Below are positions 3,661-53,885 of a DNA stretch of 62,077 nucleotides, piece by piece. The notes beneath the pieces are model-generated. The model worked only from the letters and a program-made list of their open reading frames with translations. It was not told where the DNA came from and did not search any database. Source of the stretch: an uncultured Candidatus Saccharibacteria bacterium (GTDB lineage Bacteria > Patescibacteriota > Saccharimonadia > Saccharimonadales > UBA4665); the NCBI GenBank assembly GCA_964527385.1, contig CAZGPZ010000001.1, positions 1-62,077 of the forward strand, read 5' to 3'. How positions within the stretch are numbered: position 1 is the stretch's first letter; every line of letters begins with the position of its first letter. The position numbers and the translations under genes are program-made.

Positions 3661-3680
3661 GGAGAGCTTGACCCGGGCGA

Positions 3681-4894: not shown

Positions 4895-4910
4895 GTGTAG
4901 CCGTATGACA

Positions 4911-8406: not shown

Positions 8407-8425
8407 CCACTACTCCTATGACTAG

Positions 8426-8791
8426 TTACAAGCTGCTGACGCCATTCGTCCGCAGGTAAGCGTAGACCATCATAGCGCCCAGTCCCAGGACGATAACGAC
8501 CGTCGCGAAGATTGCCAGGCCGATGCCGCTGCCAGGCACTTTGGGCGGTTTCGGTGGTTTAGTTACTACTTGCTTGGTTGCCCTCTTGGAATCTTTGGGC
8601 TCAGGTTTGGCAGCCGTGCCTCCCGGCGATGCGACCGCCAACTCAACCACCTCTTTCGGGGTAGCTTTTACTGGTTCTGGCGTCGGTTGGGGCGGGACGG
8701 GCGGCTTCGGCGGCACCACGTCCATGACGGGCTTGGGGGCTGGCTGTGGCGGCGACTGCACCGGTTCCGAGGGTTTCATAATCATAAGCAT
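8426..8791 (-). CDS. proline-rich C-terminally anchored membrane protein
   Basis: ORF 8426..8818 trimmed to the first ATG after the upstream stop. PxP-rich with one C-terminal TM. Confidence 0.55.
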   Translation of the reverse strand: MLMIMKPSEPVQSPPQPAPKPVMDVVPPKPPVPPQPTPEPVKATPKEVVELAVASPGGTAAKPEPKDSKRATKQVVTKPPKPPKVPGSGIGLAIFATVVIVLGLGAMMVYAYLRTNGVSSL

Positions 8792-8795
8792 TGTA

Positions 8796-12100: not shown

Positions 12101-14125
12101 CTACAGCCCGCCGTAGCCGCTGCCGAGACCGTAGAAGGTGTACTGCGGCTTGTAGTAGTCGGATATCTTCAGCGGTGTGCCACCGGCAATAGGCATGACG
12201 TACAGCTCGCTGCCACCCTTCTGGACGAGTAAGTATTTATCTGTATACCAGCCGTAGGGGGCATACTCGCTGGCGCTGGCGATTTGGGTACCGTTCAGGC
12301 CGGCGTAGTCGCCGACAAACAAAGTATTTTTGCCGTCGCGTGCCTGGCTCCACAACGTAGCAGTACCCGATGGCGATTCTAGGTAGGTCACGTAATTTTG
12401 CTGGACCTGGGCAAATGAGCTGTCGGTAATGGTATCGCTCTGCGTCACGCTGTTGTTCTGGTACTTATATGTGTAGTATACCGAGGGCTGCGACTGCATC
12501 GAGGACTGGACGTACAGCTCACCAGGATTCACCAGCACCGCGTACATGCCGGACGACGTCGTGCCGGCAGGCGGCGTGATATCGCGCAGGTCCTTCTTGT
12601 TTGTGCCGTCAACGTTGGCACTGTAGATACTATTGTTGTTTGATCCAAGCGGTGGGCCGGTCTCCGGCGTATTCCACGCAAAGCCATAGACGACGCGGTC
12701 GTTCAGCAGATTGACGAAGCCGAGATCTTGTTCGGTGTAGCTGCCGCTATCGCCTTGCGCGGACGATTGGTCGATGGTGGTCGATTTCGCCACCTCGGCA
12801 TTGTAGCTCTTAATAGCCGTCTTGCCAGGTTGCCAAGGCTGCTTGTCCAGGTTGTTCACTTCGTAAATGAATGTATGGTTGCTCCAGCCGACCGGAGTAA
12901 ATGTAGCGCTGCTGCTGTCGATGGTGGTGAGCGCGTTTGTCTTGGTATTTATCATATACAATTTGGCTGCAGTGCCGCCAGCGCGCTTGCTTAACAGCGC
13001 CAGGTATTGCCAGTCGCGAGAGGCAAGTAGGACGGTGCCGTTCTGGTCCTCTGAACCAGTACCATCCAGCACGGTTTTGCGGTCAGTGCCATCCAGGTTG
13101 GTCGAGACGACGTCGATCGTGCCGCTTTGGTTCGATAGGAAATAGATACGACCCGCTGGGACAAGCGCAAATTTGTTCGCACCAGTTTCACTGGTAACCT
13201 TGACGGTTGTAGCTAATGTCGTATAGCCGTCCGCGGAGAGCGTCGCGGCTAAGGTGTCGGTAGCAGTGGGCAGGACAATCGTGGCCTCGCCATTTTCGTC
13301 GGTGCGTGCTTCAGTATCGAGCACGCGCACGGCAACGTTGGAAAGCGCTTTGCCCGTAATTTTATCCGTTACACTGAGGGGCACTTGCCGGCCGGTTGCC
13401 ACCAATTTCACCGCCGCGGCATTCCGACCCGCACCGGTTGCGACGCCGGCAAAGATTGCCTGGCTGGTGTTTTGGTAATACTTTTTGGACACGATCACCT
13501 GGCCCGCCCCGACTTTGACGGTAAGGTACGCTTTGCCGGTGCTACCTGTTTCGGCCGTGTTGCCTCCGATCGAAACTTTCGCGCCAGTCACCGGCTCGGA
13601 AGTTGTGCTATCGATAACAGTGATGGTAAACTGCCGGGTCATGAACAGCGCCAGGACCGGGTACCGGGATTGCGGCACAGCCGCGATCGCGCCAAGGATA
13701 ACAAGAAGCGTCAACGGCAACGTCCAAAGCTTATGGCGCCAATACCCGCCAAAGAAGCGTCCGATAGGGTTGCGCCGGCGGGGTGGCATTGGCCGATCAG
13801 GCGGCAGCTGGGTAACCTCGGGAGCCGGGGCTTCATTCTCGTCATCGCCGCCCATATCATCCGGCTGTTCGATCATTTCCGGTCCTTTCGGCTCCTGCGG
13901 TGTTGGTTGCAACGAGGGGCGGATGGTTGTCAGCGGCTTGAAGTTCATGCCGGCCGCGCTTGGCAGCTTAGCCGGTGTGTCTATATCGTCATTCGCATCA
14001 CGGATGTTTATGGTCAATTTGGGTTTTGCTGCCGGCAGGTTGGCAGGCATATTTTTAGGCAAAGGTGGCGCGGATGGCGCTTCGTCGCCAAATTTCACCG
14101 GCACCCGCCTGATCATGTCGTCCAT
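12101..14125 (-). CDS. large single-pass membrane protein with Ig-like/carboxypeptidase-regulatory-like and beta-propeller-like ectodomain
   Basis: ATG 14125 with SD AGAGGGG. Pro-rich cytoplasmic N-terminus, one TM (LWTLPLTLLVILGAIAAV), and repeated T/S-rich beta segments. Confidence 0.7.
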   Translation of the reverse strand: MDDMIRRVPVKFGDEAPSAPPLPKNMPANLPAAKPKLTINIRDANDDIDTPAKLPSAAGMNFKPLTTIRPSLQPTPQEPKGPEMIEQPDDMGGDDENEAPAPEVTQLPPDRPMPPRRRNPIGRFFGGYWRHKLWTLPLTLLVILGAIAAVPQSRYPVLALFMTRQFTITVIDSTTSEPVTGAKVSIGGNTAETGSTGKAYLTVKVGAGQVIVSKKYYQNTSQAIFAGVATGAGRNAAAVKLVATGRQVPLSVTDKITGKALSNVAVRVLDTEARTDENGEATIVLPTATDTLAATLSADGYTTLATTVKVTSETGANKFALVPAGRIYFLSNQSGTIDVVSTNLDGTDRKTVLDGTGSEDQNGTVLLASRDWQYLALLSKRAGGTAAKLYMINTKTNALTTIDSSSATFTPVGWSNHTFIYEVNNLDKQPWQPGKTAIKSYNAEVAKSTTIDQSSAQGDSGSYTEQDLGFVNLLNDRVVYGFAWNTPETGPPLGSNNNSIYSANVDGTNKKDLRDITPPAGTTSSGMYAVLVNPGELYVQSSMQSQPSVYYTYKYQNNSVTQSDTITDSSFAQVQQNYVTYLESPSGTATLWSQARDGKNTLFVGDYAGLNGTQIASASEYAPYGWYTDKYLLVQKGGSELYVMPIAGGTPLKISDYYKPQYTFYGLGSGYGGL

Positions 14126-14214
14126 CAAAAACCCCTCTTAGCTTAAGCATATTGTACGGCTTCGGCGCCTGCTTTGCCAAATACCGATGCGTCCAAGTGC
14201 GGTACTATGAGAGG

Positions 14215-28135: not shown

Positions 28136-29836
28136 ATGGCTCCCGACGGTATTTTTCTCCAACTGAGTTTGGTCATCGTGCTTGGCGCGGTGGTCGCGGT
28201 CGTGATGCGCCTGTTGCGCCAGCCGCTTATCTTGGGCTACATATTGACTGGCGTGATCGTCGGTCCGACCGTGCTCAACTTGCTCCGCTTGGACACGTTC
28301 GACGCGTTTGCCAGCATCGGCATCACACTGCTGCTTTTCATCATCGGCTTGGGCATGAATGTTTCCGTCATCAGGCGGCTCGGAAGCACTGTCTTCGTCG
28401 CGGCGATGGTCGAGTTTTTGACCGTCGGTTCGGCCGGGTTCGTCGTGGCCAGTTTGCTCGGTTTCACGCGCACTGAAGCGCTCATCGCGGGATTATGCCT
28501 GTTCTTCAGCAGCACAATCATCATCGTCAAGATCTTGACCGACAAGAAAGAGCAGAACCGCCTGCACGGCCAGATTGCCATCGGCATCATCCTGCTGGAC
28601 GACATTGTGGCGACGATCGCCCTGCTGTTGGTGACAGCTGGCAAGAACCACGATGCGGGGCTGTCGCACCTCGGCATGCTGGTGTTGCAAGGGTCGCTGC
28701 TGGCGGCGTTTATGATCCTGATGAGCAACGTGCTGCTGCCAAGAATTACGCGGTTTGTTGCGGGATCGCAGGAAATGCTGTTCCTGTTCGCAGTCGGCTG
28801 GGGCTTTGGCGTTGCCAGCCTATTCGAGATCGCGGGGTTTTCGATTGAGATCGGCGCGCTGTTCGCCGGCGTGTCGCTGGCCGGACTGCCCTACGCCCAG
28901 GAGATCGAGGCGCGGTTGAAGCCGCTCCGTGATTTCTTCGTGGTCCTGTTTTTCATCGTGCTCGGCAAGAGCCTGACACTGACGGGCGTGACGGACGCTA
29001 TCGTGCCAGGACTGGCGTTGGCTGCCGTGGTAATCATACTTAAACCTGCCACAATCGTGGCGACGCTCGGCGCGATGGGGTATAGCAAACGGGTCAGTTT
29101 CATGGCCGGCATCCACTTGTCGCAGATCAGCGAATTCTCGATCGTTCTGGCGGTGCTGGCGGTCAATACGGGCGTGGCGGGCGGGCGCCTGAGCACGGCA
29201 ATCACGCTGGTTGCGATTTTCACGATCGCCAGTTCGTCGTACCTGACGCATTATGACAATGGGCTTTTCAAACTATTCGACAAATGGCGGTTGATGCTTT
29301 TCGAACGCACGAAGACCAAAGAGCGGCGACGGGCGCCCGGTTACCAACTCGTTCTGATCGGTTACAGCCGCGGTGGGCAGGATTTTATCAAGACATTCCA
29401 AGGGCTCCATAAGCGCTACATTGTCATCGACTATGACCCGTCGGTCGCCGACGTGCTGCAGGAGAAGCGCATCCCGTATTTGTACGGCGACGCGACGGAC
29501 ACGGAGCTGCTCGACGAGATCGGCATCCACACCGCCAAACTGATTATCAGCACGGTGACGGACTTCGAGACCAATTCGCAACTGGTCCGCCATCTGAACC
29601 TTTTGAACCCAGAAATAGTCATCGTCTGCAATGCCAGTAGCTACGAAGAAGCGCTGCAGTTGTATGAATTAGGTTCAAGCTACGTCATAATCCCCCACCA
29701 CGCCAGTACCGACCATCTCAATTCGCTCATCCAGCGCAACGGCATCGACCGGCGGCACTTCGACCGCTACCGCGCCAAACACCTGCAAAAATTAGAACAA
29801 GATCACCCATTGTCTGCTGCCGAGGGCGCCCTTTAA
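28136..29836 (+). CDS. cation:proton antiporter (CPA2/Kef-type) with C-terminal RCK/TrkA-N domain
   Basis: About 12 TMs, then LVLIGYSRGGQ Rossmann-type RCK. Confidence 0.9.
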   Translation: MAPDGIFLQLSLVIVLGAVVAVVMRLLRQPLILGYILTGVIVGPTVLNLLRLDTFDAFASIGITLLLFIIGLGMNVSVIRRLGSTVFVAAMVEFLTVGSAGFVVASLLGFTRTEALIAGLCLFFSSTIIIVKILTDKKEQNRLHGQIAIGIILLDDIVATIALLLVTAGKNHDAGLSHLGMLVLQGSLLAAFMILMSNVLLPRITRFVAGSQEMLFLFAVGWGFGVASLFEIAGFSIEIGALFAGVSLAGLPYAQEIEARLKPLRDFFVVLFFIVLGKSLTLTGVTDAIVPGLALAAVVIILKPATIVATLGAMGYSKRVSFMAGIHLSQISEFSIVLAVLAVNTGVAGGRLSTAITLVAIFTIASSSYLTHYDNGLFKLFDKWRLMLFERTKTKERRRAPGYQLVLIGYSRGGQDFIKTFQGLHKRYIVIDYDPSVADVLQEKRIPYLYGDATDTELLDEIGIHTAKLIISTVTDFETNSQLVRHLNLLNPEIVIVCNASSYEEALQLYELGSSYVIIPHHASTDHLNSLIQRNGIDRRHFDRYRAKHLQKLEQDHPLSAAEGAL

Positions 29837-31407
29837 GACGCAGTTACTACCGTGCGAACCGCTTTGCTGCCCGCAGTCTTTTGCCTAGCGCGACGGGCGA
29901 TACCGCCGATATCGATAACTTCGCCGTTCGGGCCAAGGCACGCCCCGCATCCCGCGCGCATACAGTGGGCTTTGCCGTCGGGGTCACGGCGAACATGCAC
30001 GCGCCACCTCGACTTACTTTCGGATCCGTCGTCGTCGTACTTGCTGCAGTAGCAGTTATCGATCCAGTAATCGCAGGCTTCCTCGCTCTTTGCCTGGCGC
30101 TCGTTGTCTTTTGCTTTGCCGCCGTATGGTTCCTGCGGATTGCCGATTTCGGCCCCTGGTTCTTCATCCGCGCCGTCTTTGATGAAGTGTAGCCCCGCGC
30201 AGCCGCTATAGCTTCGCTTGGCCTGGATGCCGGCTTGTACGTGCCGGGCAAGCTGGGCATGCATCGCCGCGGCGGGCATGCCGCCACTCATGGCTCCCGC
30301 CGGTTGGGGATCTGCTGGTTCAAACCAATCATGGTTGCCGCTGGAAATACCGGCACCCAGCCGCGCCCGCAAGTCTTCCACCAACGCATAACGGACGAGC
30401 CGTTCCATAGTGCGGCCGGAGGCGGCTGTGAATTCTGGCTCGCCATCCGCAAGCCGCGCAAGTTCTGACTTCATCTCGGTATCATCGAGCACGTCTGCCG
30501 AGATTGTTTGCAGGAGCGCGGCCGCCAGGCCTTGCATCGTTTCGTTGTTTTCGCCGCTATAGAGCGCAGTGGCAAGCGGACGGATGTAGTGATCGAAATA
30601 CCGCTGGACGATAGCGTCGTGCTGGCGTAGGAAGTCAGTGACCGAGTAACGCCGATGTGTTTGCCCGATCTGCCGGTAGTACGACTCGCGGATCCGGCCC
30701 GCCAGGCCAAGCGCATCTTTGATAGGCATATTGGCACGTAGCCCATGGCGGATCCATTCGTCAGCAGGTGTGTCGGCAGGCACGTCCAAGCCGAAGGCAC
30801 CCAACACGGCGCGCCAATCTTGCTTGCTGCTCGCCTCGACCGACAGGCAATGCGCGGTTATCTTGCCGCCGACGTTCACGTACACTTGCACGAACGACAT
30901 ACCGGGAACGTAGCCGAGGCCGCCCATGTCTATTCCCTGGGAAAATGCTTCTTCGGGGCACATGCTGAGGACGGCATAGACGTCACCGGGATTCGCCAAC
31001 GCGTCCACAGCTTCAGCGGTCAAGACATCGCCGTAATCGCGCGCTGCTTGCACGCGTTTGCGCGGGTCCTTGCTGGCTTCTGCTTGTGACGCCTCGTGAC
31101 CGCGCCGGACAATGTCAATCATCGGCGTGCCGTCAGCGGCAACCGCACGGCCGTTTTCGACTTCGAAATCGTACGTCCGCGCGACATCAAGCAAATGAGA
31201 CAGCTCTTTGTCGGTCTTCAGGTTTTCAGCTGCTCCCGCCGCAAAATCCGCGTACGCGAGCCCGGCGGCAATCACCCCCTCGCGGGAAGACCCGCGGCAA
31301 GCCAGCTCGCCGAGCCGGCGCAATGTTTCCATCGACAGCGCGTACACCTCCGGGCCAACAGCTTTTGGCATAGCGAACGGATCGGTTTCGAAGGGCACAG
31401 TAACCAT
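29833..31407 (-). CDS. uncharacterised 524-aa cytoplasmic protein with C-terminal Cys cluster
   Basis: Starts 4 nt after the upstream stop. No TM. CDYWIDNCYC ... HCMRAGCGAC. No family recognised. Confidence 0.7.
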   Translation of the reverse strand: MVTVPFETDPFAMPKAVGPEVYALSMETLRRLGELACRGSSREGVIAAGLAYADFAAGAAENLKTDKELSHLLDVARTYDFEVENGRAVAADGTPMIDIVRRGHEASQAEASKDPRKRVQAARDYGDVLTAEAVDALANPGDVYAVLSMCPEEAFSQGIDMGGLGYVPGMSFVQVYVNVGGKITAHCLSVEASSKQDWRAVLGAFGLDVPADTPADEWIRHGLRANMPIKDALGLAGRIRESYYRQIGQTHRRYSVTDFLRQHDAIVQRYFDHYIRPLATALYSGENNETMQGLAAALLQTISADVLDDTEMKSELARLADGEPEFTAASGRTMERLVRYALVEDLRARLGAGISSGNHDWFEPADPQPAGAMSGGMPAAAMHAQLARHVQAGIQAKRSYSGCAGLHFIKDGADEEPGAEIGNPQEPYGGKAKDNERQAKSEEACDYWIDNCYCSKYDDDGSESKSRWRVHVRRDPDGKAHCMRAGCGACLGPNGEVIDIGGIARRARQKTAGSKAVRTVVTAS

Positions 31408-31411
31408 AGGG

Positions 31412-31945
31412 CTATCGCGCCACCGGGCGGTATGCTAGGCTGCGCCGCGCCGCTGTAATCGCAACCGCGTACAAGCCGAATAGCACTGCTGAGTAAAATG
31501 CATCACTGAACACGGTATTACGGAAGAACGGCAGCGCCATGGCATAACATTCGGCAAGACCGCTCCAACTATGAGCGTACATGCCGCTGGCAACCCAGAC
31601 GGCGAAGTTGGTGGCAACAAAGAAGAAGCTGCTCGCCGCCAACACCACGGCGGCACCCTTGTATATTGTTGGCCTGCGCAACCACACATTGCTTGCCAGG
31701 ACAACCAGCACGTAGCAACACCACACGATGGGCATGATGTCGTAGAAACCGATGAGCGCATCGGAAATAATTGCGGCCACGAGCGGCACCCACCATGCCA
31801 ACTTTCGCGGAAGTACTGCGCCGCCAAAGATTGCCACCGCGGTCATGGGCGCAAAATTCGCCGGGTGCGGCAGCAGGCGTGCCGCGGCAGCGAACACGAC
31901 CAAGCATATCGCGATAACTAGCGTATATTCGCCGCGCCCTTTCAT
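31412..31945 (-). CDS. six-TM membrane protein, ECF-S-component-like/DUF6580-like (from memory)
   Basis: ATG 31945 overlaps the upstream stop (ATGA). LPHPANFAPMTAVAIFGG motif. Confidence 0.65.
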   Translation of the reverse strand: MKGRGEYTLVIAICLVVFAAAARLLPHPANFAPMTAVAIFGGAVLPRKLAWWVPLVAAIISDALIGFYDIMPIVWCCYVLVVLASNVWLRRPTIYKGAAVVLAASSFFFVATNFAVWVASGMYAHSWSGLAECYAMALPFFRNTVFSDAFYSAVLFGLYAVAITAARRSLAYRPVAR

Positions 31946-32319
31946 TGCAACTTCCACATGAGCATGTCGCTATTTTTGGTTACGTAGCTGCCAGCGCCGA
32001 CAGAAGCCTCTTTGCCATTGATATAAAACGTCCAGTATTTCGGGCCGTTGCCGGCGACGCCGTTGATGCTCACGACAAGGTCGCCGAACGAGTAATGTTT
32101 GGTGCTAACGGTGGCATGTTGCTTCAGCAAGGCAAGCGCGTCGGAACCATCACGGCCAGGGTAGCTGATTTGCGCCAATTGGTGCTGGGTGCTGGCAGCT
32201 GCAGCTGGAGCAGCAGGTTTGTGCGCAATATATACCCAGGCACAGCCGCCGGCGATAATCGCCACCAGCAAGATAGTCGTGGCGACGATTTTGGTTTTAG
32301 TGCGAACTGCTCGGTTCAT
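31942..32319 (-). CDS. membrane-anchored DUF4430-like (transcobalamin-like) putative cobalamin-binding protein
   Basis: ATG 32319 with a GGGGG SD. N-terminal TM. GPKYWTFYINGKEASVGAGSYVTKNSDMLMW. Confidence 0.7.
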   Translation of the reverse strand: MNRAVRTKTKIVATTILLVAIIAGGCAWVYIAHKPAAPAAAASTQHQLAQISYPGRDGSDALALLKQHATVSTKHYSFGDLVVSINGVAGNGPKYWTFYINGKEASVGAGSYVTKNSDMLMWKLQ

Positions 32320-32339
32320 GGATACCCCCACTTTTCTCG

Positions 32340-32460
32340 GGTGCGGGCAGCCAAAAATGGATGCTCTTGCTCGAGAGACTTTAAGAAACCGTATCTGGCT
32401 TTAACAGTTGCGGCACAGCTCGGGAATTGCACCCGAATTCCGGTTCTGATTGTTAACAAT
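32340..32460 (-). promoter_or_regulatory. cobalamin (B12) riboswitch candidate
   Basis: Minus strand reads GGAATTCGGGTGCAATTCCCGAGCTGTGCCGCAACTGTTAAAGCCAGATACGG. This matches the GGTGnAAnTCC...GCnG..CCGCnACTGT core and has a B12-box-like element. Confidence 0.65.
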
Positions 32461-32518
32461 TAGTAGTGTAGCAGCCGAGTCACACGCTAGATATAGTAAT
32501 TTTGATGACGTTTATGCA

Positions 32519-33232
32519 CTAGTTGACTGCAAAACTCTTGACGATCTGGGCAAACGTCGTGTAATCAGGGTTCGGGCTGTTGTCGGTGTAGACGAGCAGT
32601 ATACGGTGTTTGCCAGTTGTTTGGCTGGTAAGAGTAACCATATTCATGCCTTCGTCGGAACCGATCGCAACAACGTCGCGCTCATAGTTGCCAATGTCGC
32701 ACAAGAAGTTAACGCCATTCCATTTTGCGGACGCGGTACCGGTCCGGGTTGACGCTGCCGTCTTGTCGGTGAAATTGACACAGTTGTCTGACGTCGTGCC
32801 GATCGCGTTCAGATGGTCTCCGTCGGCTTCAACCGGCAAGAGGTGGTTGACCGCCAGATTGGTTGGAATATCGTCTATGTATACGTCGAGCCACCGCGCC
32901 CGGTCGTCTTTGACCGTTCCCTGCCAAGTGACTAGTGGCAATGGAGACGTACCACCTGTATTAATATGCTCTTGCCACGTACTTGGAACATCGAACGAAA
33001 CATTGCCTTTGATAATATGTTTGGTCTGCGTGCTGCTAATGGGGACATTTTTGACAACCGCGTTGGACTGGTTCAGGACGGTACTTGGCTGCAAGAGCTG
33101 CCTGGCACCCATGACACCACCAACTACAAGACCGGCAAGGATGCATACGATGACGGCAAGCCGGATATAGTGGTGCTTGGGCCGATGGCCGAGTTGGTAC
33201 ATAGTAATTTTTACATTTCTATGCAATATCAT
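32519..33232 (-). CDS. membrane-anchored hypothetical protein
   Basis: One TM (LAVIVCILAGLVVGGVM). The start is uncertain: 33232 or ATG 33202. Confidence 0.55.
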   Translation of the reverse strand: MILHRNVKITMYQLGHRPKHHYIRLAVIVCILAGLVVGGVMGARQLLQPSTVLNQSNAVVKNVPISSTQTKHIIKGNVSFDVPSTWQEHINTGGTSPLPLVTWQGTVKDDRARWLDVYIDDIPTNLAVNHLLPVEADGDHLNAIGTTSDNCVNFTDKTAASTRTGTASAKWNGVNFLCDIGNYERDVVAIGSDEGMNMVTLTSQTTGKHRILLVYTDNSPNPDYTTFAQIVKSFAVN

Positions 33233-43150: not shown

Positions 43151-44530
43151 ATGCCTGATTCAAAGCCTGTTGTTACAGTTCTTGGGTGCGGGTATGTTGG
43201 CGTGACGACTGCTGTGGTGCTCGCCAATTGCGGCATCAAAGTCTACGCCATCGAACCAATGCCGGCGCGGCTGAATATTCTGAAGCGGGGCAAATCGTTT
43301 TTCTACGAAACGGGCGTTGACGAACTTATCAAACGCGCCGTCGATACGGGCATGCTCACCTTCACCGATTCGTACGAAGCTTCCGTACCAAACAGCTCGG
43401 TTGTCTTTTCGTGCGTCGGAACACCGGATAACGCCGACGGCAGCTCCAATCTCACGTACGTCTTTAACTCCGCCGAGGAGACCGCCAAACATGTTAAGCC
43501 CGGCACCATTTTCGCGCAGAAAAGCACCGTCCCGGTCGGCACCGGCGCCCGCGTAATCGAACTGTTCAAAAAGGGTGGCGCTGATGTGCGCTACGTCTCG
43601 AACCCGGAATTCCTGCGCGAAGGCACCGCCATCGCCGACACGCTGTGGTTCGACCGCATCGTCGCCGGCAGCGACGACCAGGCAGCCGCGCAGGCCATCT
43701 TGGACTTATATAAAGTCATCGAGCAGCATGCTGATGAAGTGGGTAAAATCGCAGGTACCGAAAAGCCAAAGTCAGCACCAGTGCCACAGTATATGCTGGT
43801 GTCCCGCAACAGCGCCGAGCTGATTAAGGTCACAGCCAACGCGTTCCTGGCGCTCAAGATTTCGTTCGCCAACTCCATAGCAAAACTTGCAGATTTGGCT
43901 GGCGCCGATGTCACGCAAGTCATGGACGGCGCGGGTTCCGACCGCAGGATCGGGCGTGCCTTCCTCAATGCCGGGCGCGGCTATGGCGGCGGTTGTTTCC
44001 CCAAGGACGTCAGCGGCCTGATCCGTAGCGCCGAGGAATACGGCGCCGACATGGAGATAATGCGTGCCGCCGTCGAAGTGAATGAATCAATGCCGCATTA
44101 CGTCATAGAGAAAGCAAAAACCGCGCTCGGCGACGCGTCCAGCGACAACGTATTCGACGGCAAGAAAGTTGCCATACTCGGACTGTCGTTCAAGGCAGGC
44201 ACCAGCGATGTCCGCAAGTCGCCGGCAATCACGATCGCCAACACCCTTGCCGAGCAGGGTGCCGACGTGCGGGCATACGACCCGGAAGCGATGGACGAAG
44301 CGCGCGAAGATTTGGACAAATCGGTCAAACTCGCTAATTCTGTTGATGAAGCAGTAAAAGGCACCGACATAATCTTCGTCACCACCGACTGGCCGGAATT
44401 CGTTTCGATGGACTTGAAGAAGCTCGCCAAAGATTCCGGCGCCAAAGTCTTTGTCGATTGCATGAACCGTTTCACCAGCGCAACTGTATCCGCCGCCGTT
44501 TTCACCTATGTTGGCATTGGCAAACCTTGA
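43151..44530 (+). CDS. ugd: UDP-glucose 6-dehydrogenase family nucleotide-sugar dehydrogenase
   Basis: SD GGAGGG then ATG 43151. VLGCGYVGVTTA Rossmann motif and catalytic GGGCFPKD. Confidence 0.9.
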   Translation: MPDSKPVVTVLGCGYVGVTTAVVLANCGIKVYAIEPMPARLNILKRGKSFFYETGVDELIKRAVDTGMLTFTDSYEASVPNSSVVFSCVGTPDNADGSSNLTYVFNSAEETAKHVKPGTIFAQKSTVPVGTGARVIELFKKGGADVRYVSNPEFLREGTAIADTLWFDRIVAGSDDQAAAQAILDLYKVIEQHADEVGKIAGTEKPKSAPVPQYMLVSRNSAELIKVTANAFLALKISFANSIAKLADLAGADVTQVMDGAGSDRRIGRAFLNAGRGYGGGCFPKDVSGLIRSAEEYGADMEIMRAAVEVNESMPHYVIEKAKTALGDASSDNVFDGKKVAILGLSFKAGTSDVRKSPAITIANTLAEQGADVRAYDPEAMDEAREDLDKSVKLANSVDEAVKGTDIIFVTTDWPEFVSMDLKKLAKDSGAKVFVDCMNRFTSATVSAAVFTYVGIGKP

Positions 44531-44641
44531 TATCATCAATACTCCTCAAGATAACCGACACAGAATTTTCACACCTACATACGTCGTAGGCTTGTACACC
44601 GTGTTTATAGTGAGTATAGTAGCGTAAAAGATTTAAGCCAC

Positions 44642-44986
44642 ATGACCAAGCGACTTGCTGCCGATGAAGCAGCTTATAAAATAGCTATTACATCAGGGAC
44701 TTTGGTGCCTCTTCACTTAGAAGTGCCGATCTATGATTTTCACTACTGGAAAATCATCGAAAACCGTTTCCCGCATTCCAAAATAGCGAACGAGAACCAT
44801 TTACTCGTACTAAAACGTGAGTGCGCTATTACCCATATATTGCCAGCTGAGTGGGCGGAATTTTTGGAAATCATGCAACAGATCAGCCATCTATACGACA
44901 ATATTACTTATAATTTGCCAGGCATGAGCAGCGTGAAGAATGTAGTTCACTACCATTTATACCGGCTCAAGCCAGAATATAAATAA
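44642..44986 (+). CDS. hypothetical protein, possibly HIT-like
   Basis: 114 aa. C-terminal VVHYHLY resembles a histidine-triad motif. Weak call. Confidence 0.45.
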   Translation: MTKRLAADEAAYKIAITSGTLVPLHLEVPIYDFHYWKIIENRFPHSKIANENHLLVLKRECAITHILPAEWAEFLEIMQQISHLYDNITYNLPGMSSVKNVVHYHLYRLKPEYK

Positions 44987-45014
44987 TACTTTTCCCTGAT
45001 CAACATGAACCATT

Positions 45015-46052
45015 TCAGTTTTTTGTTTTTAGCTTCTTGCTGATCTCACCGACTTGTTGTGACAGGTCCTTGCGTGCCACTAGTATGCCATCAGCCGTAT
45101 TTACGACGACTATATTGTCTAGGCCAATAACAGCCACTGGTTTGTTTTCCTCATTGTGCACATATGAATTCTCTATTTCATCCATTAAAACATTGCCGAA
45201 TACATGGTTGCCTTTTTCGTCCTGTTCAACAGCCTTGTGTAGGTCGTTAAAAGAACCCAAATCCATCCAGTCGAACGATGCAGGAACAACCAGCAGGTCC
45301 TTTACCTTTTCGATCAACGCATAGTCTATCGAGACATTTTCAAAGTCCAGATAGGTCGCCTCGTACTGCTCCGGCTTGGCTTTCAAAAGCTTGTGGTAAT
45401 TATCCGCCCACTCCGGGGCATATTCTTTCAGTGCCCGTTTGAACGTATCCAGCGACCCGACAAAGTAACCAGCGTTCCAGAGATAATTGCCACTTTTGAC
45501 ATACGTTTTTGCGGTATTGTAATCCGGCTTCTCCTTGAACGAATGCACGTTGTGCACGTAGGTGCTGTTCTCCAGCAATCCGGACTTCTGGATATAGCCG
45601 AAGCCGGTCGCTGGATAATCCGGCTCTATGCCGACCAGCACGACACGGCTGTGCTTCTTGGACACAGCACCCGCCACCGTAAAGCTATGGACGAAACCCT
45701 CGTTGTCACGGATATAATGGTCAGCCGCCAGGAAAGCGATCGGCTCGCTTGGGTCATGCTTGCCGCTCAGTTGCACCAGTGCCGCAACGATACAACTCGC
45801 CGTTCCACGACGAGCCGGTTCGACGATGAAGTTCTCGCCAGGCAGTTCCGGCAATTGGTCTTTCACATACTGGATATGTCCTGCCTCCGAAACAACATAG
45901 ATGCTATCTGCCAATTGCTTGGCACGCAAGTAGGTATTTTGGAGCAACGAGCGTTCGTCGCCGTTCACTTTCAGAAGATGTTTAGGATACGACGGCGTGG
46001 ACAACGGCCAGAGCCTCGTCCCCGACCCCCCGGCAATAATCACCACGATCAT
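45015..46052 (-). CDS. manC: mannose-1-phosphate guanylyltransferase
   Basis: [14 protein letters not shown] and EKPD-like FKEKPD. No PMI domain. Confidence 0.9.
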   Translation of the reverse strand: MIVVIIAGGSGTRLWPLSTPSYPKHLLKVNGDERSLLQNTYLRAKQLADSIYVVSEAGHIQYVKDQLPELPGENFIVEPARRGTASCIVAALVQLSGKHDPSEPIAFLAADHYIRDNEGFVHSFTVAGAVSKKHSRVVLVGIEPDYPATGFGYIQKSGLLENSTYVHNVHSFKEKPDYNTAKTYVKSGNYLWNAGYFVGSLDTFKRALKEYAPEWADNYHKLLKAKPEQYEATYLDFENVSIDYALIEKVKDLLVVPASFDWMDLGSFNDLHKAVEQDEKGNHVFGNVLMDEIENSYVHNEENKPVAVIGLDNIVVVNTADGILVARKDLSQQVGEISKKLKTKN

Positions 46053-46066
46053 GATTCTCTAGTATA
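46050..46066 (-). promoter_or_regulatory. -10 TATACT 8 nt upstream of ATG 46052; leaderless
   Basis: Minus strand reads gcagTATACTagagaatcATG. Confidence 0.5.
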
Positions 46067-46078
46067 CTGCAGCAGCAT

Positions 46079-46106
46079 TTGACATGAAACACTGCAAGGG
46101 CATAGT
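46079..46106 (+). promoter_or_regulatory. TTGACA-16-CATAGT promoter for the manB-rfb operon
   Basis: TTGACA 46079-46084, CATAGT 46101-46106. A ~70-nt leader ends in SD AAGGAG. Confidence 0.45.
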
Positions 46107-46175
46107 GTATGAGTAGCTGGCGCGCATGGAGCACGCTAGTTGAGAAGCAAAAGCGTAAGCAAAGGAGTAATCCCC

Positions 46176-47528
46176 GTGGATGCTATCAACACCATTTTTA
46201 AATCTTATGACGTGCGCGGCAAAACCGGCACGGAACTAACGCGGGAAGTTGTAGAACAGATTGGTCGGGCATTCGCCGACTGGCTACCAGAATCAGAACA
46301 AGTCGCGGTCGGTCGCGATATGCGTACCGATTCATATGAGTTGACTGAGGCGTTTATTAAAGGCATGCGGCGCCAAGGCCGCGACGTGATCGATATTGGC
46401 ATGATCACCAGCGATATGGTGTATTTCGCCGTCGGCAATTGGGAGCTGGCTGGCGGCGCCGTGATCACCGCTAGCCACAATCCTGGAAACGATAATGGCA
46501 TCAAACTGTATCGCGACCACGTCACTGCAGTCGGGCTCGACTCAGGACTAGATAAAATTCGCGATGCGGTCATTACCCGTTCATTCAAACCCGCAACTAA
46601 GAAGCTCGGTAAACTTGAACATAGAGATATCACTAAAGCTTGGATTGAACACTGTCTCCGATTCGGCCCGCGACTCAAACCATTTCATATCGCCATAGAT
46701 AACGGCAATGGCATGGCAGGCATTGTGCTTCCCTATCTTTTACCAAAGTTACCGCTCAGTGCCGAAGTTCTCTACCCGGAACCGGATGGATCATTTCCAA
46801 ATCACGAAGCCAATCCGCAGAAGATCGAAAATCTGCAAGACCTCATAGCCAAAGTAATCAAAGAAAAACTAGATTTTGGTATCGCGTTCGACGGTGACGG
46901 TGACCGAGCTGTGCTCGTTGACGACCGCGGCCGGCTCGTGTTAGGGACCGATCTTATGAGCATTATTGCTAAACATTACCTAGAAAAGCATCCTGGCAGC
47001 GCAATTATTCATGAAGTGCGCACCAGCCGTGCAACACAAGAATTGATCCGCGAATGGGGTGGTATGCCGATCCGCACCAAAGCTGGTCGCGTGCACATCG
47101 GCCCGCTCATGCGCAAGCATGGTGCGGCTTTTGGCGGCGAGACAACCGGGCATATGTTCTTCAAAGAAAACTACGACGCCGATTCCGGCATGATTACAGC
47201 CATTGCCGCAATGCAGGCAATTAGTGATTCAGGCAAAAAGCTTTCTGAACTTGTTGATGAATATAGGCGCTACGCGATGTTGCCCGAGCGAAATATCACG
47301 TTTGCTGGCGATAAAACACAGTTATTTGCGACACTACGTAAGGTATTTGCTGAAGCTAAGCAAGACGAGCTCGATGGATTGACGGTTACATATCCTTACG
47401 GCTGGTTTAATCTACGTGTTAGTAACACCGAACCTGTCTTACGTTTGAATGTCGAAGCGGAGAGTGAGGAAGCACTCCAGCAATTGCTCAAAAACATCTT
47501 AACAATCATTGAAAGGCAGGCGTTATGA
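46176..47528 (+). CDS. manB: phosphomannomutase/phosphoglucomutase
   Basis: GTG 46176, 8 nt after AAGGAG. Active-site TASHNPGNDNG and metal loop FDGDGDR. Confidence 0.9.
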   Translation: MDAINTIFKSYDVRGKTGTELTREVVEQIGRAFADWLPESEQVAVGRDMRTDSYELTEAFIKGMRRQGRDVIDIGMITSDMVYFAVGNWELAGGAVITASHNPGNDNGIKLYRDHVTAVGLDSGLDKIRDAVITRSFKPATKKLGKLEHRDITKAWIEHCLRFGPRLKPFHIAIDNGNGMAGIVLPYLLPKLPLSAEVLYPEPDGSFPNHEANPQKIENLQDLIAKVIKEKLDFGIAFDGDGDRAVLVDDRGRLVLGTDLMSIIAKHYLEKHPGSAIIHEVRTSRATQELIREWGGMPIRTKAGRVHIGPLMRKHGAAFGGETTGHMFFKENYDADSGMITAIAAMQAISDSGKKLSELVDEYRRYAMLPERNITFAGDKTQLFATLRKVFAEAKQDELDGLTVTYPYGWFNLRVSNTEPVLRLNVEAESEEALQQLLKNILTIIERQAL

Positions 47529-48550
47529 AAATACTCATTACCGGCGGCGCAGGATTTATTGGCTCAAACTATGTGCATTACGTCCGTGAGAACCATCCTG
47601 ACTACCAAGTCGTGGTGATAGATAAGTTGAACCAGCAAGGCAATAAGGAGAATCTAAAAGACGTTTTGGACCACATTGAGTTCCACCAGTTTGACTTAGT
47701 AGAGGAAGATAAATTACGACCGATCTTTGAATCCGGCATCGACTACGTCGTGCACTTTGCCGCCGAGACGAACGTTGATCGTTCGATTGAAGATCCTGAT
47801 AGTTTCGTGAGCAACAACGTGCTTGTAACAAACATTTTGCTGCGCCTGTCACGCGATTATAAAGTCAAGCGCTTTCATCACGTATCAACCGACGAAGTAT
47901 TCGGCAGCCTCGAGCTAGGAAGCGAAAACAAATTTAACGAACAAACTCCCTATGATCCACGCAGCCCGTATTCAGCGTCCAAGGCCGGCAGCGACCACCT
48001 AGTTCGCTCCTATTTTCACACCTATGGCTTAAACGTAACAATATCAAATTGCTCGAACAATTACGGCCCGTACCAGGTGCCGGAAAATATAGTGCCTGTG
48101 TTCGCGCTCATGGCGTTAAATGACAAGCCGCTGACAATTTACGGTGATGGCAAAAGCGTGCGTGACTACTTATACGTACTCGACCACTGCCGTGCTATTG
48201 ACCTGATATTACACAAAGGCAAAACCGGCGAGACGTATTGCGTTGGTGGTGGCGAAGAGAAAAATGGCATTGAAATTGCTGACACAATTTTGGAAATTAC
48301 CAGCAAACCACAAAGTTTAAGAACATTTGTTACTGATCGTCCTGGCCATGATCGACGATATGCCATTGACTATTCGAAACTGGCGACTGAGCTTGGCTAC
48401 AAACCAAGCGTAACGTTTGAGGAAGGAATTCGCCAAACCGTCGAATGGTACAAAAATAATCAAACCTGGTGGCAGCCTTACATGCAGAAATTTTACGTGC
48501 CTAAGTTCATGCAGAGCACTAAAACGATGCACGCCAAGCAAGGAAAATAG
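47525..48550 (+). CDS. rfbB: dTDP-glucose 4,6-dehydratase
   Basis: ITGGAGFIGSN, YSASKAGSDHL. ATGA overlap with manB. Confidence 0.95.
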   Translation: MKILITGGAGFIGSNYVHYVRENHPDYQVVVIDKLNQQGNKENLKDVLDHIEFHQFDLVEEDKLRPIFESGIDYVVHFAAETNVDRSIEDPDSFVSNNVLVTNILLRLSRDYKVKRFHHVSTDEVFGSLELGSENKFNEQTPYDPRSPYSASKAGSDHLVRSYFHTYGLNVTISNCSNNYGPYQVPENIVPVFALMALNDKPLTIYGDGKSVRDYLYVLDHCRAIDLILHKGKTGETYCVGGGEEKNGIEIADTILEITSKPQSLRTFVTDRPGHDRRYAIDYSKLATELGYKPSVTFEEGIRQTVEWYKNNQTWWQPYMQKFYVPKFMQSTKTMHAKQGK

Positions 48551-48551
48551 C

Positions 48552-49100
48552 ATGGGCGGATGGAAAACATTATCGACCAGAATCGCTTACGAAAACCCAT
48601 TCATGCGCGTCCACGAAGATCAGGTTATAAACCCTGCTGGTAAGCCGACTATATATGGGTACTGTGAATCAACAGAGGCGGCAGCCTATATCGCTGCCAT
48701 CGACGACAATGCATATCTATACTTTATAGAACAGTACCGCTACCCACTAAAACAGAATTCCTGGGAACTTATTGCCGGGCGTATTCCAAATTCAGAAGAT
48801 ACAATGATCGGCGCCCGGCGTGAACTTTTTGAGGAAGCGGGCCTTGAGGCAGGAGAGCTGATCAGCCTCGGCAAACTTCACGCCGCGCCGGGCATCACAA
48901 CTTTTACCTGGACCGTGTTTTTAGCACGTGCACTACAAAAGACAGGAAAAGGACTAGACCGCGCTGACGGCATCTCACGAATCAAAAAATTTTCGTTTAA
49001 GGATGTAGACCGCATGATCAGAACCGGCAAGATTACTTGCGCAACCAGTATTGCAGCATACTATTTAGCAAAAGCATATTGGGAGGAAACCTATGTTTGA
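48552..49100 (+). CDS. NUDIX hydrolase (nucleoside-diphosphate-sugar pyrophosphatase, NudF/NudK-like)
   Basis: ATG 48552, 1 nt after the rfbB stop. Nudix box GRIPNSEDTMIGARRELFEEAGL. Confidence 0.8.
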   Translation: MGGWKTLSTRIAYENPFMRVHEDQVINPAGKPTIYGYCESTEAAAYIAAIDDNAYLYFIEQYRYPLKQNSWELIAGRIPNSEDTMIGARRELFEEAGLEAGELISLGKLHAAPGITTFTWTVFLARALQKTGKGLDRADGISRIKKFSFKDVDRMIRTGKITCATSIAAYYLAKAYWEETYV

Positions 49101-49659
49101 GCCAGATGGTTATCAATCATTGCGCGTCACAGAATCGCCGATTACGGGACTATTTGTCATCAATCTAGTAGTTAACGGAGATGGCCGTGGCTGGTTTAAG
49201 GAAAACTACCAAGCTACAAAACTCGAGGCGCTAGGACTGCCTCATTTCAATGTTGTCCAGAATAACTTTTCATTTAATGCCGAAAAAGGCGTAACGCGCG
49301 GCCTCCACGCCGAGCCGTGGGAAAAGTACATATCAGTTGCAAATGGCAGCGTGTTTGGCGCATGGGTTGATTTGCGCAAAGGTCCGACTTTCGGGAAAAC
49401 GTTTACAACAGAGATTAATCCCGGGAGGGCAATTTTTGTTTCGCGCGGCATCGCGAACAGCTACCAGGCATTAGAGGCAAATGTAGTGTACACATACCTC
49501 GTTAATGCCCATTGGTCACCAGAAGCAAAATATACACTAATTAATTTGTTTGACCCCGCGTTGAATATTGCATGGCCAATTGATAGATCTCGTGCCATCG
49601 TCTCGGACAAAGACGCCAACCTTCCGCTGCTGCGCGACATAACACCTTTGGAGTTTTGA
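49093..49659 (+). CDS. rfbC: dTDP-4-dehydrorhamnose 3,5-epimerase
   Basis: Cupin with GDGRGWFKE, RGLHAEPW and ANSYQAL. 8-nt overlap with the upstream gene. Confidence 0.88.
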   Translation: MFEPDGYQSLRVTESPITGLFVINLVVNGDGRGWFKENYQATKLEALGLPHFNVVQNNFSFNAEKGVTRGLHAEPWEKYISVANGSVFGAWVDLRKGPTFGKTFTTEINPGRAIFVSRGIANSYQALEANVVYTYLVNAHWSPEAKYTLINLFDPALNIAWPIDRSRAIVSDKDANLPLLRDITPLEF

Positions 49660-49660
49660 C

Positions 49661-50515
49661 ATGAATGATGAAGATCTTTTGATTGTCGGAGCGAACGGAC
49701 AACTCGGCACTGCCCTCCGGGAGAAATACCCAGGCGCTAAGATTATCGACGTCGGCGAGCTCGATATCAGCAATCAAGCTGCCGTACGTGCATATGATTG
49801 GTCGGATACGAAAGTCGTTTTGAACGCAGCAGCTTACACGAACGTTGATGGCGCGGAAACAGCTCAGGGACGCATAGTGGGTTGGAAAGTAAATGCTACC
49901 GGCCCATGCAATCTGGCTGAAGCAGCTATCAGCCATAATTTTACCTTGGTACATGTTTCCAGCGATTATGTTTTTGACGGGACACACGACAATCATTCCG
50001 AAACTGAACCGTTTAGTCCGCTAAATGTCTACGGCCAAAGTAAAGCGGCTGGAGACATTGCAGTAAGTTTAGTGCCAAAGCATTATATTCTGCGCACAAC
50101 GTGGGTCATCGGTGAAGGCAAAAATTTCGTCCGTACTATGCTTGATCTAGGCCGGAAAGGCGTCTCCCCAACTGTGGTGGCTGATCAATTCGGCAGGCTA
50201 ACATTTACCAGCGAACTGGTGCGTGTGATTGACTATTTATTGCAGACAAATCCAGCGTTTGGCACCTATAACGCTACAAACGATGGCGATCCAGCTAGTT
50301 GGTCCGATATCACGCGCAAAATCTTTAAACTGGCCGGGTTCGATCTTTCTGTTGCCGACACCACAACCGAGGCTTATTTTGCCGGTAAGACGGGGATTGC
50401 ACCACGTCCATTACAAAGCACTATGGATCTCACAAAGCTCCAACAGACAGGCTTTACCTCGCATGATTGGCGCGATGACCTCAAGGCGTATATACAGAAA
50501 GGATCGACCACATGA
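49661..50515 (+). CDS. rfbD: dTDP-4-dehydrorhamnose reductase
   Basis: IVGANGQLG, NAAAYTNVD, YGQSKAAGD. Confidence 0.9.
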   Translation: MNDEDLLIVGANGQLGTALREKYPGAKIIDVGELDISNQAAVRAYDWSDTKVVLNAAAYTNVDGAETAQGRIVGWKVNATGPCNLAEAAISHNFTLVHVSSDYVFDGTHDNHSETEPFSPLNVYGQSKAAGDIAVSLVPKHYILRTTWVIGEGKNFVRTMLDLGRKGVSPTVVADQFGRLTFTSELVRVIDYLLQTNPAFGTYNATNDGDPASWSDITRKIFKLAGFDLSVADTTTEAYFAGKTGIAPRPLQSTMDLTKLQQTGFTSHDWRDDLKAYIQKGSTT

Positions 50516-51045
50516 CGTCATTAATGGACCAACCGGATGAGTTACTCGATCTTGTAAATAGTCGGGATGAAGTGGTCGGTACTATACGCCGTGAAGAAAT
50601 CCCTACCTTGGAACAAACTGGCAAAGGCTACGTCCGGGCAGTTGGCGTTTTTCTAGTGAGCAGTGAGGGTAAGCTTTGGATCCCTCGGCGACAACACCAT
50701 AAAAAGATTGCACCGGACGGTCTTGACTTCAGCGCCGCCGAGCATGTTGGCAGGGGTGAAACGTATGACGCAGCCGCGCTACGTGGCCTGGGTGAAGAGC
50801 TGGCCATTGATGCTGATAGCGCAAAACTTACATTTGTTGGTACCGTAAAACCGTTCGCAGGCCTGCCCTATTTTCACCCAGTGTATACATACCCTTGTGA
50901 TGAAGTTCCACGTTTTTCGACCGACGACTTTAGTAGTTACGAATGGCTTACGCCGGCCGAAGTAAAACAAAAGTTGCAAGCCAGAGAACAGGCAAAAGAA
51001 GTTCTGCTTCCAGCCATCCAGTTGTTAACCCAAAAGGAGGATTGA
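50512..51045 (+). CDS. NUDIX hydrolase (IDI-like subfamily)
   Basis: ATGA overlap with rfb[21 protein letters not shown] Nudix-like box. Confidence 0.7.
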
Positions 51046-51046
51046 T

Positions 51047-51910: not shown

Positions 51911-51925
51911 TGTATTTCTTACAGT

Positions 51926-53880: not shown

Positions 53881-53885
53881 AAGCT

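Follow-up and report, generated by a model that had tools for sequence, protein, structure and literature searches.

A cobalamin riboswitch-controlled locus in Saccharibacteria with a predicted uptake pair and a conserved, previously unannotated protein family

Several described systems for the handling of vitamin B12 (cobalamin) resemble parts of the locus reported here. The nrdJ-cbrS-cbrT-pduO cluster of Lactobacillus delbrueckii ends in a B12-processing enzyme, and PDB entry 6FNP is ECF-CbrT, a vitamin B12 transporter of the energy-coupling factor (ECF) type (PMC5997447). BtuM of Thiobacillus denitrificans is a solitary B12 transporter that resembles an ECF S-component and has a cysteine as cobalt ligand (PMC6072759). 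Here we analyze a stretch of 62,077 nt (the window) from an uncultured Candidatus Saccharibacteria bacterium (assembly GCA_964527385.1, contig CAZGPZ010000001.1, positions 1 to 62,077 of the forward strand), whose minus strand carries an operon led by a cobalamin riboswitch and composed of a DUF4430 gene, a DUF6580 gene and a gene for a 524-residue protein, hereafter G3. The Saccharibacteria (TM7) are reduced-genome episymbionts. As far as we know, they cannot make B12, and their routes of obtaining and using it are essentially undescribed.

Like the Lactobacillus cluster and its ECF-CbrT transporter, the locus sets a small, six-helix membrane protein, here a predicted cobalamin S-component, beside genes with predicted accessory and cytoplasmic B12-handling roles. 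It differs from that cluster in that the last gene, G3, does not encode a PduO adenosyltransferase, in that nrdJ is missing, and in being controlled by a class-II riboswitch. The riboswitch, the DUF4430 and DUF6580 families and riboswitch-controlled loci for B12 acquisition are known, and what is new is the conserved third component. Judged by the conservation of its sequences, G3 is a real, previously unannotated family, and a riboswitch stands ahead of it in 24 of 24 loci, the window included. We regard G3 as a good candidate for an undescribed B12-related function.

The riboswitch-led operon and its predicted transporter

The operon is composed of the following elements, given with their coordinates in the window.

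32461 to 32494, minus strand: putative promoter block, ATATCTAGCG...GCTACACTACTA; the same block stands 5' of the riboswitch in many related loci
32381 to 32456, minus strand: aptamer of a class-II cobalamin riboswitch (RF01689, 42.6 bits); its core, CTGTGCCGCAAC, is common to all related leaders
32364 to 32377, minus strand: small conserved hairpin, CTCT-CGAGCA-AGAG, directly 3' of the aptamer
32325 to 32347, minus strand: hairpin CCCGCAC / GTGGGGG with the Shine-Dalgarno (SD) sequence, present in the minimum-free-energy fold
31942 to 32319, minus strand: gene 1, membrane-anchored DUF4430 protein of 125 aa (PF14478), a predicted extracytoplasmic cobalamin binder
31412 to 31945, minus strand: gene 2, DUF6580 protein of 177 aa with six helices (PF20221), a predicted cobalamin-specific, S-component-like transporter
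29833 to 31407, minus strand: gene 3 (G3), unannotated soluble protein of 524 aa without family or PDB sequence match, from a family essentially restricted to Saccharibacteria

A preliminary description of this DNA had proposed a cobalamin riboswitch of family RF00174 on the minus strand, at about 32455 to 32345. A cmscan of all 62 kb against Rfam gave one match at gathering level, at 32381 to 32456 of the minus strand and to RF01689 (AdoCbl-II, clan CL00101), which scored 42.6 bits against a cutoff of 36.5 (E = 7e-7) and covered model positions 1 to 81 of 81. The riboswitch was right and its family was not, the element being of the compact class II; the aptamer takes up only 76 nt of the proposed span, and the remainder is expression platform. 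Apart from these two corrections, all the sequence features that had been described were present. The scan reports the single best family of each clan per site, and RF01689 outscored the others in the window; the gathering score of RF00174 (31.5 bits) was reached by the orthologous leaders of five other loci (L074, L078, L009, L127 and L002). As is usual for class-II riboswitches, the window leader has a short aptamer without a large peripheral extension, matched over its full length above the gathering score, and a downstream hairpin with the ribosome-binding site. The related Saccharibacterial leaders differ from this class in carrying variable insertions, and RF00174 or RF01482 often gives them the higher score.

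In the leader, a hairpin masks the ribosome-binding site of gene 1: its 3' arm carries the SD sequence GGGGG (32329 to 32325), 5 nt before the ATG of the DUF4430 gene at 32319. Ligand-dependent repression by the riboswitch is predicted from this anatomy, an SD-sequestering hairpin being found in the window and in 20 related leaders. The small hairpin that follows the aptamer, TCTCGAGCAAGAGC or a compensated variant such as TCCCGAGCAGGAGC, occurs at this place in nearly all related leaders and is possibly the kissing-loop partner of class-II switches. Upstream, the block ATATCTAGCG...GCTACACTACTA was found in related loci before both G3 and DUF4430 leaders and is the putative promoter of the riboswitch leader; against this, a sigma-70 scan did not call the conserved block at 32461 to 32494 as a promoter. 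Downstream, the start of gene 2 overlaps the stop of gene 1 by 4 nt (ATGA) and the ATG of G3 sits 4 nt past the TAG of gene 2, both as previously described, and no terminator-like site was found between the three genes. They should therefore be co-transcribed and translationally coupled.

The first gene had been taken for a membrane-anchored relative of DUF4430 and transcobalamin, which the profile searches bore out. It matches PF14478 with E = 4.6e-13 (49.9 bits against a cutoff of 23.8), residues 58 to 125 aligning with profile positions 1 to 71 of 72, and has a single, N-terminal hydrophobic transmembrane (TM) segment at residues 8 to 34. A weak match to the beta domain of transcobalamin-1 (PDB 4kki, E = 0.02) runs through a YW..G...S.GAGSY motif and covers residues 379 to 426 of the human protein. 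The likeness to the beta domains of transcobalamin, haptocorrin and intrinsic factor is limited to one beta-like domain of about 70 residues, held by one TM tether and without an alpha domain. Binding of cobalamin outside the cell is predicted from this weak alignment and from the riboswitch context.

The second gene matches PF20221 (DUF6580) with E = 2.9e-45 (154.8 bits against a cutoff of 27), and its close relatives are labeled 'DUF6580 family putative transport protein [Candidatus Saccharimonadales]' at NCBI; together with the source organisms of the related loci, this label assigns the window to Saccharibacteria. To our knowledge, neither DUF4430 nor DUF6580 has been characterized experimentally; literature searches on DUF6580, on Saccharibacteria and cobalamin riboswitches and on B12-dependent enzymes in Saccharibacteria found nothing relevant. 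The resemblance to an ECF S-component with six TM helices that had been noticed for gene 2 holds at the level of the fold. An AlphaFold (AF2) model built from 51 homologs (predicted local distance difference test, pLDDT, of 92.7) has six helices, and its best Foldseek matches in the PDB are ECF S-components, namely RibU (5kc0), 5edl, FolT and ThiT, with probabilities of 0.82 to 1.0, TM-scores of 0.5 to 0.6 and E-values of only 0.1 to 1 (for RibU 5kc0, probability 1.0 and TM-score 0.56 to 0.58). The modeled fold supports an S-component-like carrier. When the DUF6580 profile was compared with all PDB sequences, the sole match was 6FNP chain A, at a marginal E of 0.2 and over residues 8 to 93, and a specificity for B12 is suggested by the context together with this marginal match to CbrT. 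Unlike in ECF-CbrT, no genes for EcfA, EcfA' or EcfT were found in the window: among its open reading frames (ORFs) scanned against Pfam, there were no ECF A/T or BtuCD genes, in agreement with the preliminary description, and the sole ABC ATPase belongs to an ABC-2 type system (1611 to 3493).

Comparison with BtuM leads to a similar picture, BtuM being likewise a small membrane protein, for which B12 import without an ECF module is proposed; DUF6580 might work alone in this way or with an ECF module encoded elsewhere in the genome. The conserved residues of BtuM are H28, D67, C80, Y85 and R153 (PMC6072759). Among the invariant or near-invariant residues of DUF6580 (H27, D62, C77, Y78, R142 and C133), the first five are similarly placed, a numerical resemblance and not an alignment. 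The DUF6580 profile did not return the BtuM sequence from the PDB even at E = 10, which makes the likeness one of analogy and not of membership. BtuM is moreover mostly proteobacterial and works with BtuB, whereas a DUF4430 binder accompanies DUF6580.

From these elements we propose a cobalamin-repressed uptake operon in the Saccharibacterial chromosome. When cobalamin is plentiful, the riboswitch would shut the whole unit off. When the unit is expressed, the membrane-anchored DUF4430 protein would capture cobalamin outside the cell in the manner of a transcobalamin beta domain, as its homology suggests, and would hand it to the DUF6580 protein, whose homology and fold point to an S-component-like carrier across the membrane.

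Distribution of the G3 family and its linkage to cobalamin riboswitches

The third protein had been described as free of TM segments and of any recognizable family, and neither was found. It has no hydrophobic segment (the maximum hydropathy over 19 residues is 1.1) and no match among Pfam, NCBIfam or PDB sequences, the only PHROG match being non-significant (E = 0.1). A word-indexed homology search returned one relative, 69% identical, from a 3.8-kb soil contig that preserves the gene order of the window (L001; related loci are cited by such numbers), and the same two proteins came back when the search was repeated with an 86-sequence alignment. An exhaustive HMMER search recovered 238 representative clusters (at 50% identity), 164 of them at E <= 1e-30, with most members between 470 and 560 aa. 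Conservation was assessed on 86 diverse members, 26 to 43% identical to the window protein; scanned one by one against Pfam, they gave only weak Zn-ribbon matches, and the best match of the family profile among PDB sequences had E = 0.026. Between the window protein and its 69%-identical relative, the proportion of nonsynonymous differences (pN) is 0.20 while that of synonymous ones (pS) is saturated, indicating that the ORF is under purifying selection. Longer members showed no domain fusions, and their N-terminal extensions are probably start codons miscalled through the riboswitch. No homolog was found in plasmid or phage collections, and the family is absent from the searchable literature.

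Loci of G3 were retrieved with a degenerate DNA pattern for G..AGR[ST]YGGC followed by a hidden Markov model (HMM) filter; the pattern recovers only part of the family, and about 80% of its matches were chance matches, removed by the HMM. This gave 16 loci from GTDB species genomes and 15 from metagenomes. Of the former, 13 are labeled Saccharibacteria, Saccharimonadia or Saccharimonadales, and the other three come from an 'uncultured bacterium' and from bins labeled Limnocylindrales (8 kb) and Dormiibacterota (3.9 kb).

By the preliminary description, its reading would fail if G3 homologs were never linked to B12 riboswitches or to DUF4430 genes. We found a cobalamin-clan riboswitch directly 5' of G3, or of its DUF4430-DUF6580 operon, in all 23 further loci that retain their 5' flank. 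Eleven of these reach an Rfam gathering score, on the same strand and directly 5' of G3 (L004, L009, L074, L078, L084, L092, L127, L151, L154, L187 and L215); the other 12 score below it in the expected place and orientation, among them L025, L055, L057, L075, L083, L156, L161, L173, L196 and L201, where the element likewise stands 5' of G3. Two permissive Rfam searches (120 kb, both strands) gave, outside the leaders, only a genuine S-adenosylmethionine (SAM) riboswitch and one weak Phe-leader match. All the leaders are plainly homologous, with a promoter-like block, TTAACAA, GCTGGAA, a stem, GTGnAAnTC, a closing stem, CTGTGCCGCAACGGT, AGTCCGATACAGC and the terminal TCTCGAGCAAGAGC hairpin, and their core motif occurs 31 times at expected leaders against five times elsewhere in the window and 215 fetched loci. 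Most stand-alone loci have a GC-rich hairpin just before the ATG of G3, followed by a U-run; as the 3' arm of this hairpin is the SD sequence (GAGGG), the switch should act on G3's own ribosome-binding site. Linkage in every evaluable locus makes G3 a core member of the Saccharibacterial B12 regulon.

The L173 contig, metagenomic and Saccharibacteria-like, carries a gathering-level SAM (S-box) riboswitch of 57 bits at 5237 to 5337 of the minus strand, about 2.5 kb upstream of the G3 leader.

The region is highly syntenic. The conserved Saccharibacterial order is Wzy_C, GtrA, LexA, (UppP), a 237-aa single-TM protein, the riboswitch slot and a NadD-like gene, followed by a convergent Na/H exchanger, DsbA, a CBS protein and an asparaginyl- or aspartyl-tRNA synthetase (AsnRS/AspRS). 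In such a setting, adjacency alone is weak evidence, and G3 might stand behind a riboswitch incidentally and be unrelated to B12. Against this, the riboswitch lies directly 5' of G3 and in the same orientation in every evaluable locus, the regulatory hairpin contains G3's own SD sequence, and where the transporter pair comes between, either the spacing collapses to 4 to 10 nt or a second riboswitch is kept before G3. An incidental adjacency is thus effectively excluded.

In most loci, the riboswitch slot holds G3 alone. In four lineages (the window, L036, L001 and L158), the transporter pair and G3 stand behind one riboswitch, with 4, 4, 4 and 10 nt, respectively, between the DUF6580 stop and the G3 start; compared across these lineages, the G3 proteins share as little as about a third of their residues. 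L036 has its riboswitch in front of DUF4430, and in L158 the upstream flank is cut off. In L004, the transporter unit and the G3 unit are adjacent and each has its own riboswitch. A riboswitch core was found upstream of every evaluable DUF4430-DUF6580 pair, and G3 adjoins DUF6580 in 5 of 11 distinct DUF6580 loci. G3 cannot be counted as a partner dedicated to DUF6580, since it more often stands alone behind its riboswitch. Saccharibacteria thus possess two units under cobalamin control, one with G3 and one with the transporter pair, that were repeatedly brought together.

The place after the transporter can be taken by other genes. On the plus strand of L002, a riboswitch (2236 to 2381), DUF4430 (2455 to 2829) and DUF6580 (2829 to 3359) are followed by a full-length cobyric acid synthase, CobQ (3414 to 4967; NF001989, 585.7 bits against a cutoff of 273). 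As the organism is not expected to make B12, this gene hints that corrinoids with incomplete amidation are salvaged or repaired. Further on, a second riboswitch (5029 to 5261; RF00174, 24.8 bits, E = 2e-4 in a local search) precedes the gene of a 521-aa protein (5321 to 6886, plus strand) that was recognized neither by the G3 HMM nor by hhalign. It shares with G3 an N-terminal MAEAA(T), a C-T-G-G-S-C-G motif and a terminal CxC...CxxC cluster, and it may be a very divergent G3 relative in the same slot. A 566-aa gene that starts 18 nt after DUF6580 in L218 (5576 to 7276, plus strand) was considered as a G3 for its size and position and rejected, its product being unrelated, highly acidic, of low complexity and without cysteines; the post-transporter slot is therefore variable. 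In L006, toxin-antitoxin genes (a ParE toxin, a MazE/PemK pair and Fic; 2789 to 5302 and 8355 to 8962) flank the riboswitch-DUF4430-DUF6580 unit on both sides.

The NadD-like nucleotidyltransferase, which scores 111.5 bits with TIGR00482 (cutoff 112.45), lies closely behind G3 in 21 loci (L029:5807-6424 and 20 others), at distances that range in the five loci measured from a one-base overlap to about 20 nt, and it could be co-transcribed behind the riboswitch. As a co-regulated partner of G3 it was rejected: it is present where G3 is absent (L217 and L002), and tblastn gave no match to it anywhere in the 62-kb window, so we treat it as synteny. In the window, the 3' end of G3 overlaps by 4 nt (29833 to 29836) that of a convergent gene for a CPA2 Na+/H+ exchanger with a TrkA_N domain (28136 to 29836, plus strand), so that a terminator would have no space between the two; L001 and several other loci have this convergent pair as well. 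On the other side, outside the riboswitch-controlled unit, the 237-aa protein with one N-terminal TM helix (32519 to 33232, minus strand) matched nothing in Pfam or NCBIfam, and its PHROG matches were all non-significant (E about 0.4). In at least six loci (the window, L004, L057, L075, L083 and L084), it is the conserved neighbor directly 5' of the riboswitch.

Conserved features and possible functions of G3

Three segments of G3 are conserved outside the bulk of its core or at its edge.

30199 to 30216, minus strand: motif R398-S-Y-S-G-C403 (consensus AGRSYGGC), with G402 and C403 invariant in 86 of 86 members
30118 to 30141, minus strand: motif N423-PQEPYGG-430 (consensus NPQEAFGG) in a flexible linker, with Q425, G429 and G430 conserved in at least 90%
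29938 to 30075, minus strand: C-terminal, Cys-rich zinc-ribbon domain (C445, C452, C454, C482, C487 and C490), known from weak profile matches and followed by a basic helix

The AF2 model of G3 that was built from the 86-sequence alignment is confident (pLDDT 87.4, predicted TM-score 0.79). In Foldseek it matched no PDB structure (best E 0.076, TM-score about 0.1) and no BFVD model (E 0.026, TM-score 0.09), which is consistent with the novelty that had been supposed for the protein. E61, G402, C403 and C482 are invariant in the alignment, and about 30 more positions are conserved in at least 90% of members, among them R398, Y400, G401 and C487. The AGRSYGGC motif is found where the ordered core ends and the pLDDT drops from 93 to 70 and then to 46; the NPQEAFGG motif stands ahead of the Cys cluster, between two disordered stretches (412 to 421 and 435 to 443, pLDDT below 50). 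Many members start with M-A-[VAE]-A-A-E, exactly MAVAAE in 8 of 86, and the window protein (MVTVPF) does not.

The C-terminal Cys cluster that had been pointed out earlier is present at residues 445 to 490, and 85 of the 86 members have at least four cysteines within their last 110 residues. Its weak profile matches are to the zinc ribbon of ribosomal eL43/L37Ae and to assorted Pfam Zn-ribbon families, including DNA-binding ones, and in the model a long basic helix (residues 502 to 523) comes after it. These features, together with LexA as a conserved neighbor, would suit a nucleic-acid-binding or regulatory protein tied to B12 status indirectly, for example by coordinating replication or translation with cofactor supply. 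This seems quite improbable to us: the zinc-ribbon type differs between members while the conserved part is the core of about 400 residues, no helix-turn-helix or other known regulatory domain was found in G3, and the LexA neighborhood is ordinary synteny that also occurs where G3 is absent.

Four other kinships of G3 were considered and rejected. For a papain-like or phytochelatin-synthase fold, the match to Alr0975 (E 0.026) covers the N-terminal 60 residues only and is not collinear with the invariant cysteine, and there is neither fold support nor a conserved histidine. The nucleophile elbow of glutamine amidotransferases (G-x-C-x-G) and a MetE-like reading of the motif both lack a fold match and a conserved triad. 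In the case of glycyl-radical enzymes or class III ribonucleotide reductase (NrdD), brought to mind by R-S-Y-G-G-C with a Zn ribbon, there was again no conserved triad and no fold match, such enzymes having a ten-stranded alpha/beta barrel; the order of motifs is reversed relative to an RVxG[FWY] located C-terminal to the Zn site, and the sequence is different.

We prefer, with a probability of about 0.45, to read G3 as a protein that accepts or processes corrinoids in the cytoplasm by means of its invariant cysteine. As the soluble partner of uptake, it would accept the incoming corrinoid and trap it or process it, for example by removal or exchange of the upper ligand, by adenosylation or by chaperoning to a B12-dependent enzyme. 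Cys403, on a flexible loop, would be the cobalt ligand or a nucleophile, and the zinc ribbon a structural or docking element. We favor this because G3 is tightly coupled in translation to the importer in four lineages; because the place after the transporter holds CobQ in L002 and PduO in the Lactobacillus cluster (PMC5997447); and because the invariant cysteine lies on a presumably mobile segment of low model confidence, the cobalt-ligating thiolate of BtuM being a precedent for its proposed role (PMC6072759). G3 stands at a place in a B12 uptake operon at which cytoplasmic B12-processing proteins occur, such as the adenosyltransferases PduO, CobA and EutT, CblC/MMACHC and MMADHC. MMADHC has an invariant cysteine that forms a Co-S bond, and G3 also has an invariant cysteine. 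These are likenesses of possible working and not of membership: G3 resembles none of these proteins in sequence or in fold, and it is two to three times larger than the adenosyltransferases.

Several observations weigh against this proposal. The 86-member alignment shows no recognizable B12-binding motif, and since no histidine is conserved in at least 90% of members, there is no DxHxxG; nor was a nucleotide-binding motif found, and the Foldseek search of the model returned no B12-binding or B12-processing protein of the PDB. Nucleic-acid binders, too, typically have a zinc ribbon with a basic helix behind it. For most G3 genes there is no adjacent transporter, and the riboswitch slot holds DUF4430-DUF6580 without G3 in L006, L217, L219 and L220, genomes that must do without G3 or encode it elsewhere if it processes B12. 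Repression by B12, finally, fits a B12-independent back-up enzyme equally well. The activity proposed for G3 is a proposal at every step, and we hold it with modest confidence.

Such a back-up enzyme would be an isozyme or bypass, most plausibly for deoxyribonucleotide or methyl-group supply, that is off when B12 is available, much as metE or nrdAB/nrdEF are switched off by B12 in other bacteria. It would explain why G3 is usually alone behind its riboswitch, as metE-type genes are, and why it is patchy relative to the transporter pair, the slot between the riboswitch and the NadD-like gene holding G3 in many genomes and only DUF4430-DUF6580 in L217. The invariant polar residues (E61, D66, R123, D127, several tyrosines and C403) resemble an active site, and a Zn site combined with a catalytic cysteine is textbook knowledge for MetE and NrdD. 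Although it is the main rival of the reading that we prefer, we consider this function rather unlikely: the fold of the G3 model resembles neither MetE-type TIM barrels nor ribonucleotide reductase barrels nor any other enzyme of the PDB, no candidate reaction can be named, and tight coupling to importer genes in four lineages is unexpected for an enzyme that makes B12 unnecessary.

The same coupling would suit an energizing or gating partner of the DUF6580 S-component, that is, a cytoplasmic substitute for the ECF ATPase and T module. The scanned window ORFs include neither ECF A nor ECF T genes, and the way in which solitary S-components such as BtuM obtain their energy is unsettled, metabolic trapping having been proposed (PMC6072759, PMC11109136). 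However, most G3 genes are not beside DUF6580, and four DUF6580 loci have no G3; no Walker-type ATPase motif was noticed on reading the sequence and the family alignment, G3 has no similarity to EcfA or EcfT, and ECF modules could lie elsewhere in the genome. An energizing role therefore appears improbable.

The preliminary idea of a compact B12 acquisition or processing module with a novel third component is supported by the riboswitch, which scores above its threshold, and by the linkage of G3 to such elements. Beyond the corrinoid acceptor that we prefer, we think it rather probable that G3 is the founder of a new class of proteins related to cobalamin, its fold being unmatched in the PDB or BFVD. 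It would then be either a new type of enzyme for the trafficking or processing of B12 inside the cell (for instance a dealkylase or decyanase that works with a thiol, or a corrinoid adenosyltransferase of a fourth type, not homologous to the others) or a new B12-independent enzyme that helps these ultra-small episymbionts through B12 scarcity.

Other regions of the window and implications

In another part of the window, the final 18 kb (about 44000 to 62077), the G+C content is 0.45-0.49, down from about 0.53-0.60. This stretch encodes sugar-nucleotide enzymes of the dTDP-rhamnose and GDP-mannose type and glycosyltransferases, and it may be a horizontally acquired surface-polysaccharide cluster. 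Three long ORFs of the window have no Pfam match at E 1e-5, namely 12101 to 14128 (minus strand, 675 aa), 55664 to 58072 (plus strand, 802 aa) and 58088 to 60031 (minus strand, 647 aa).

Time and again, new transporters and enzymes have been found by way of riboswitch regulons. The locus described here suggests a minimal uptake route for B12 in Saccharibacteria, made of a tethered transcobalamin-like binder and an S-component-like carrier, and it points to a conserved, riboswitch-controlled family that has neither an annotation nor a structural relative in the PDB or BFVD. G3 is a well-defined, testable candidate for a missing step of B12 handling or for a new B12-independent bypass, and its family offers a cheap marker of B12 dependence in genomes of the candidate phyla radiation. 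If G3 does found a new class, the Saccharibacteria would have in it their main B12 response gene under riboswitch control.

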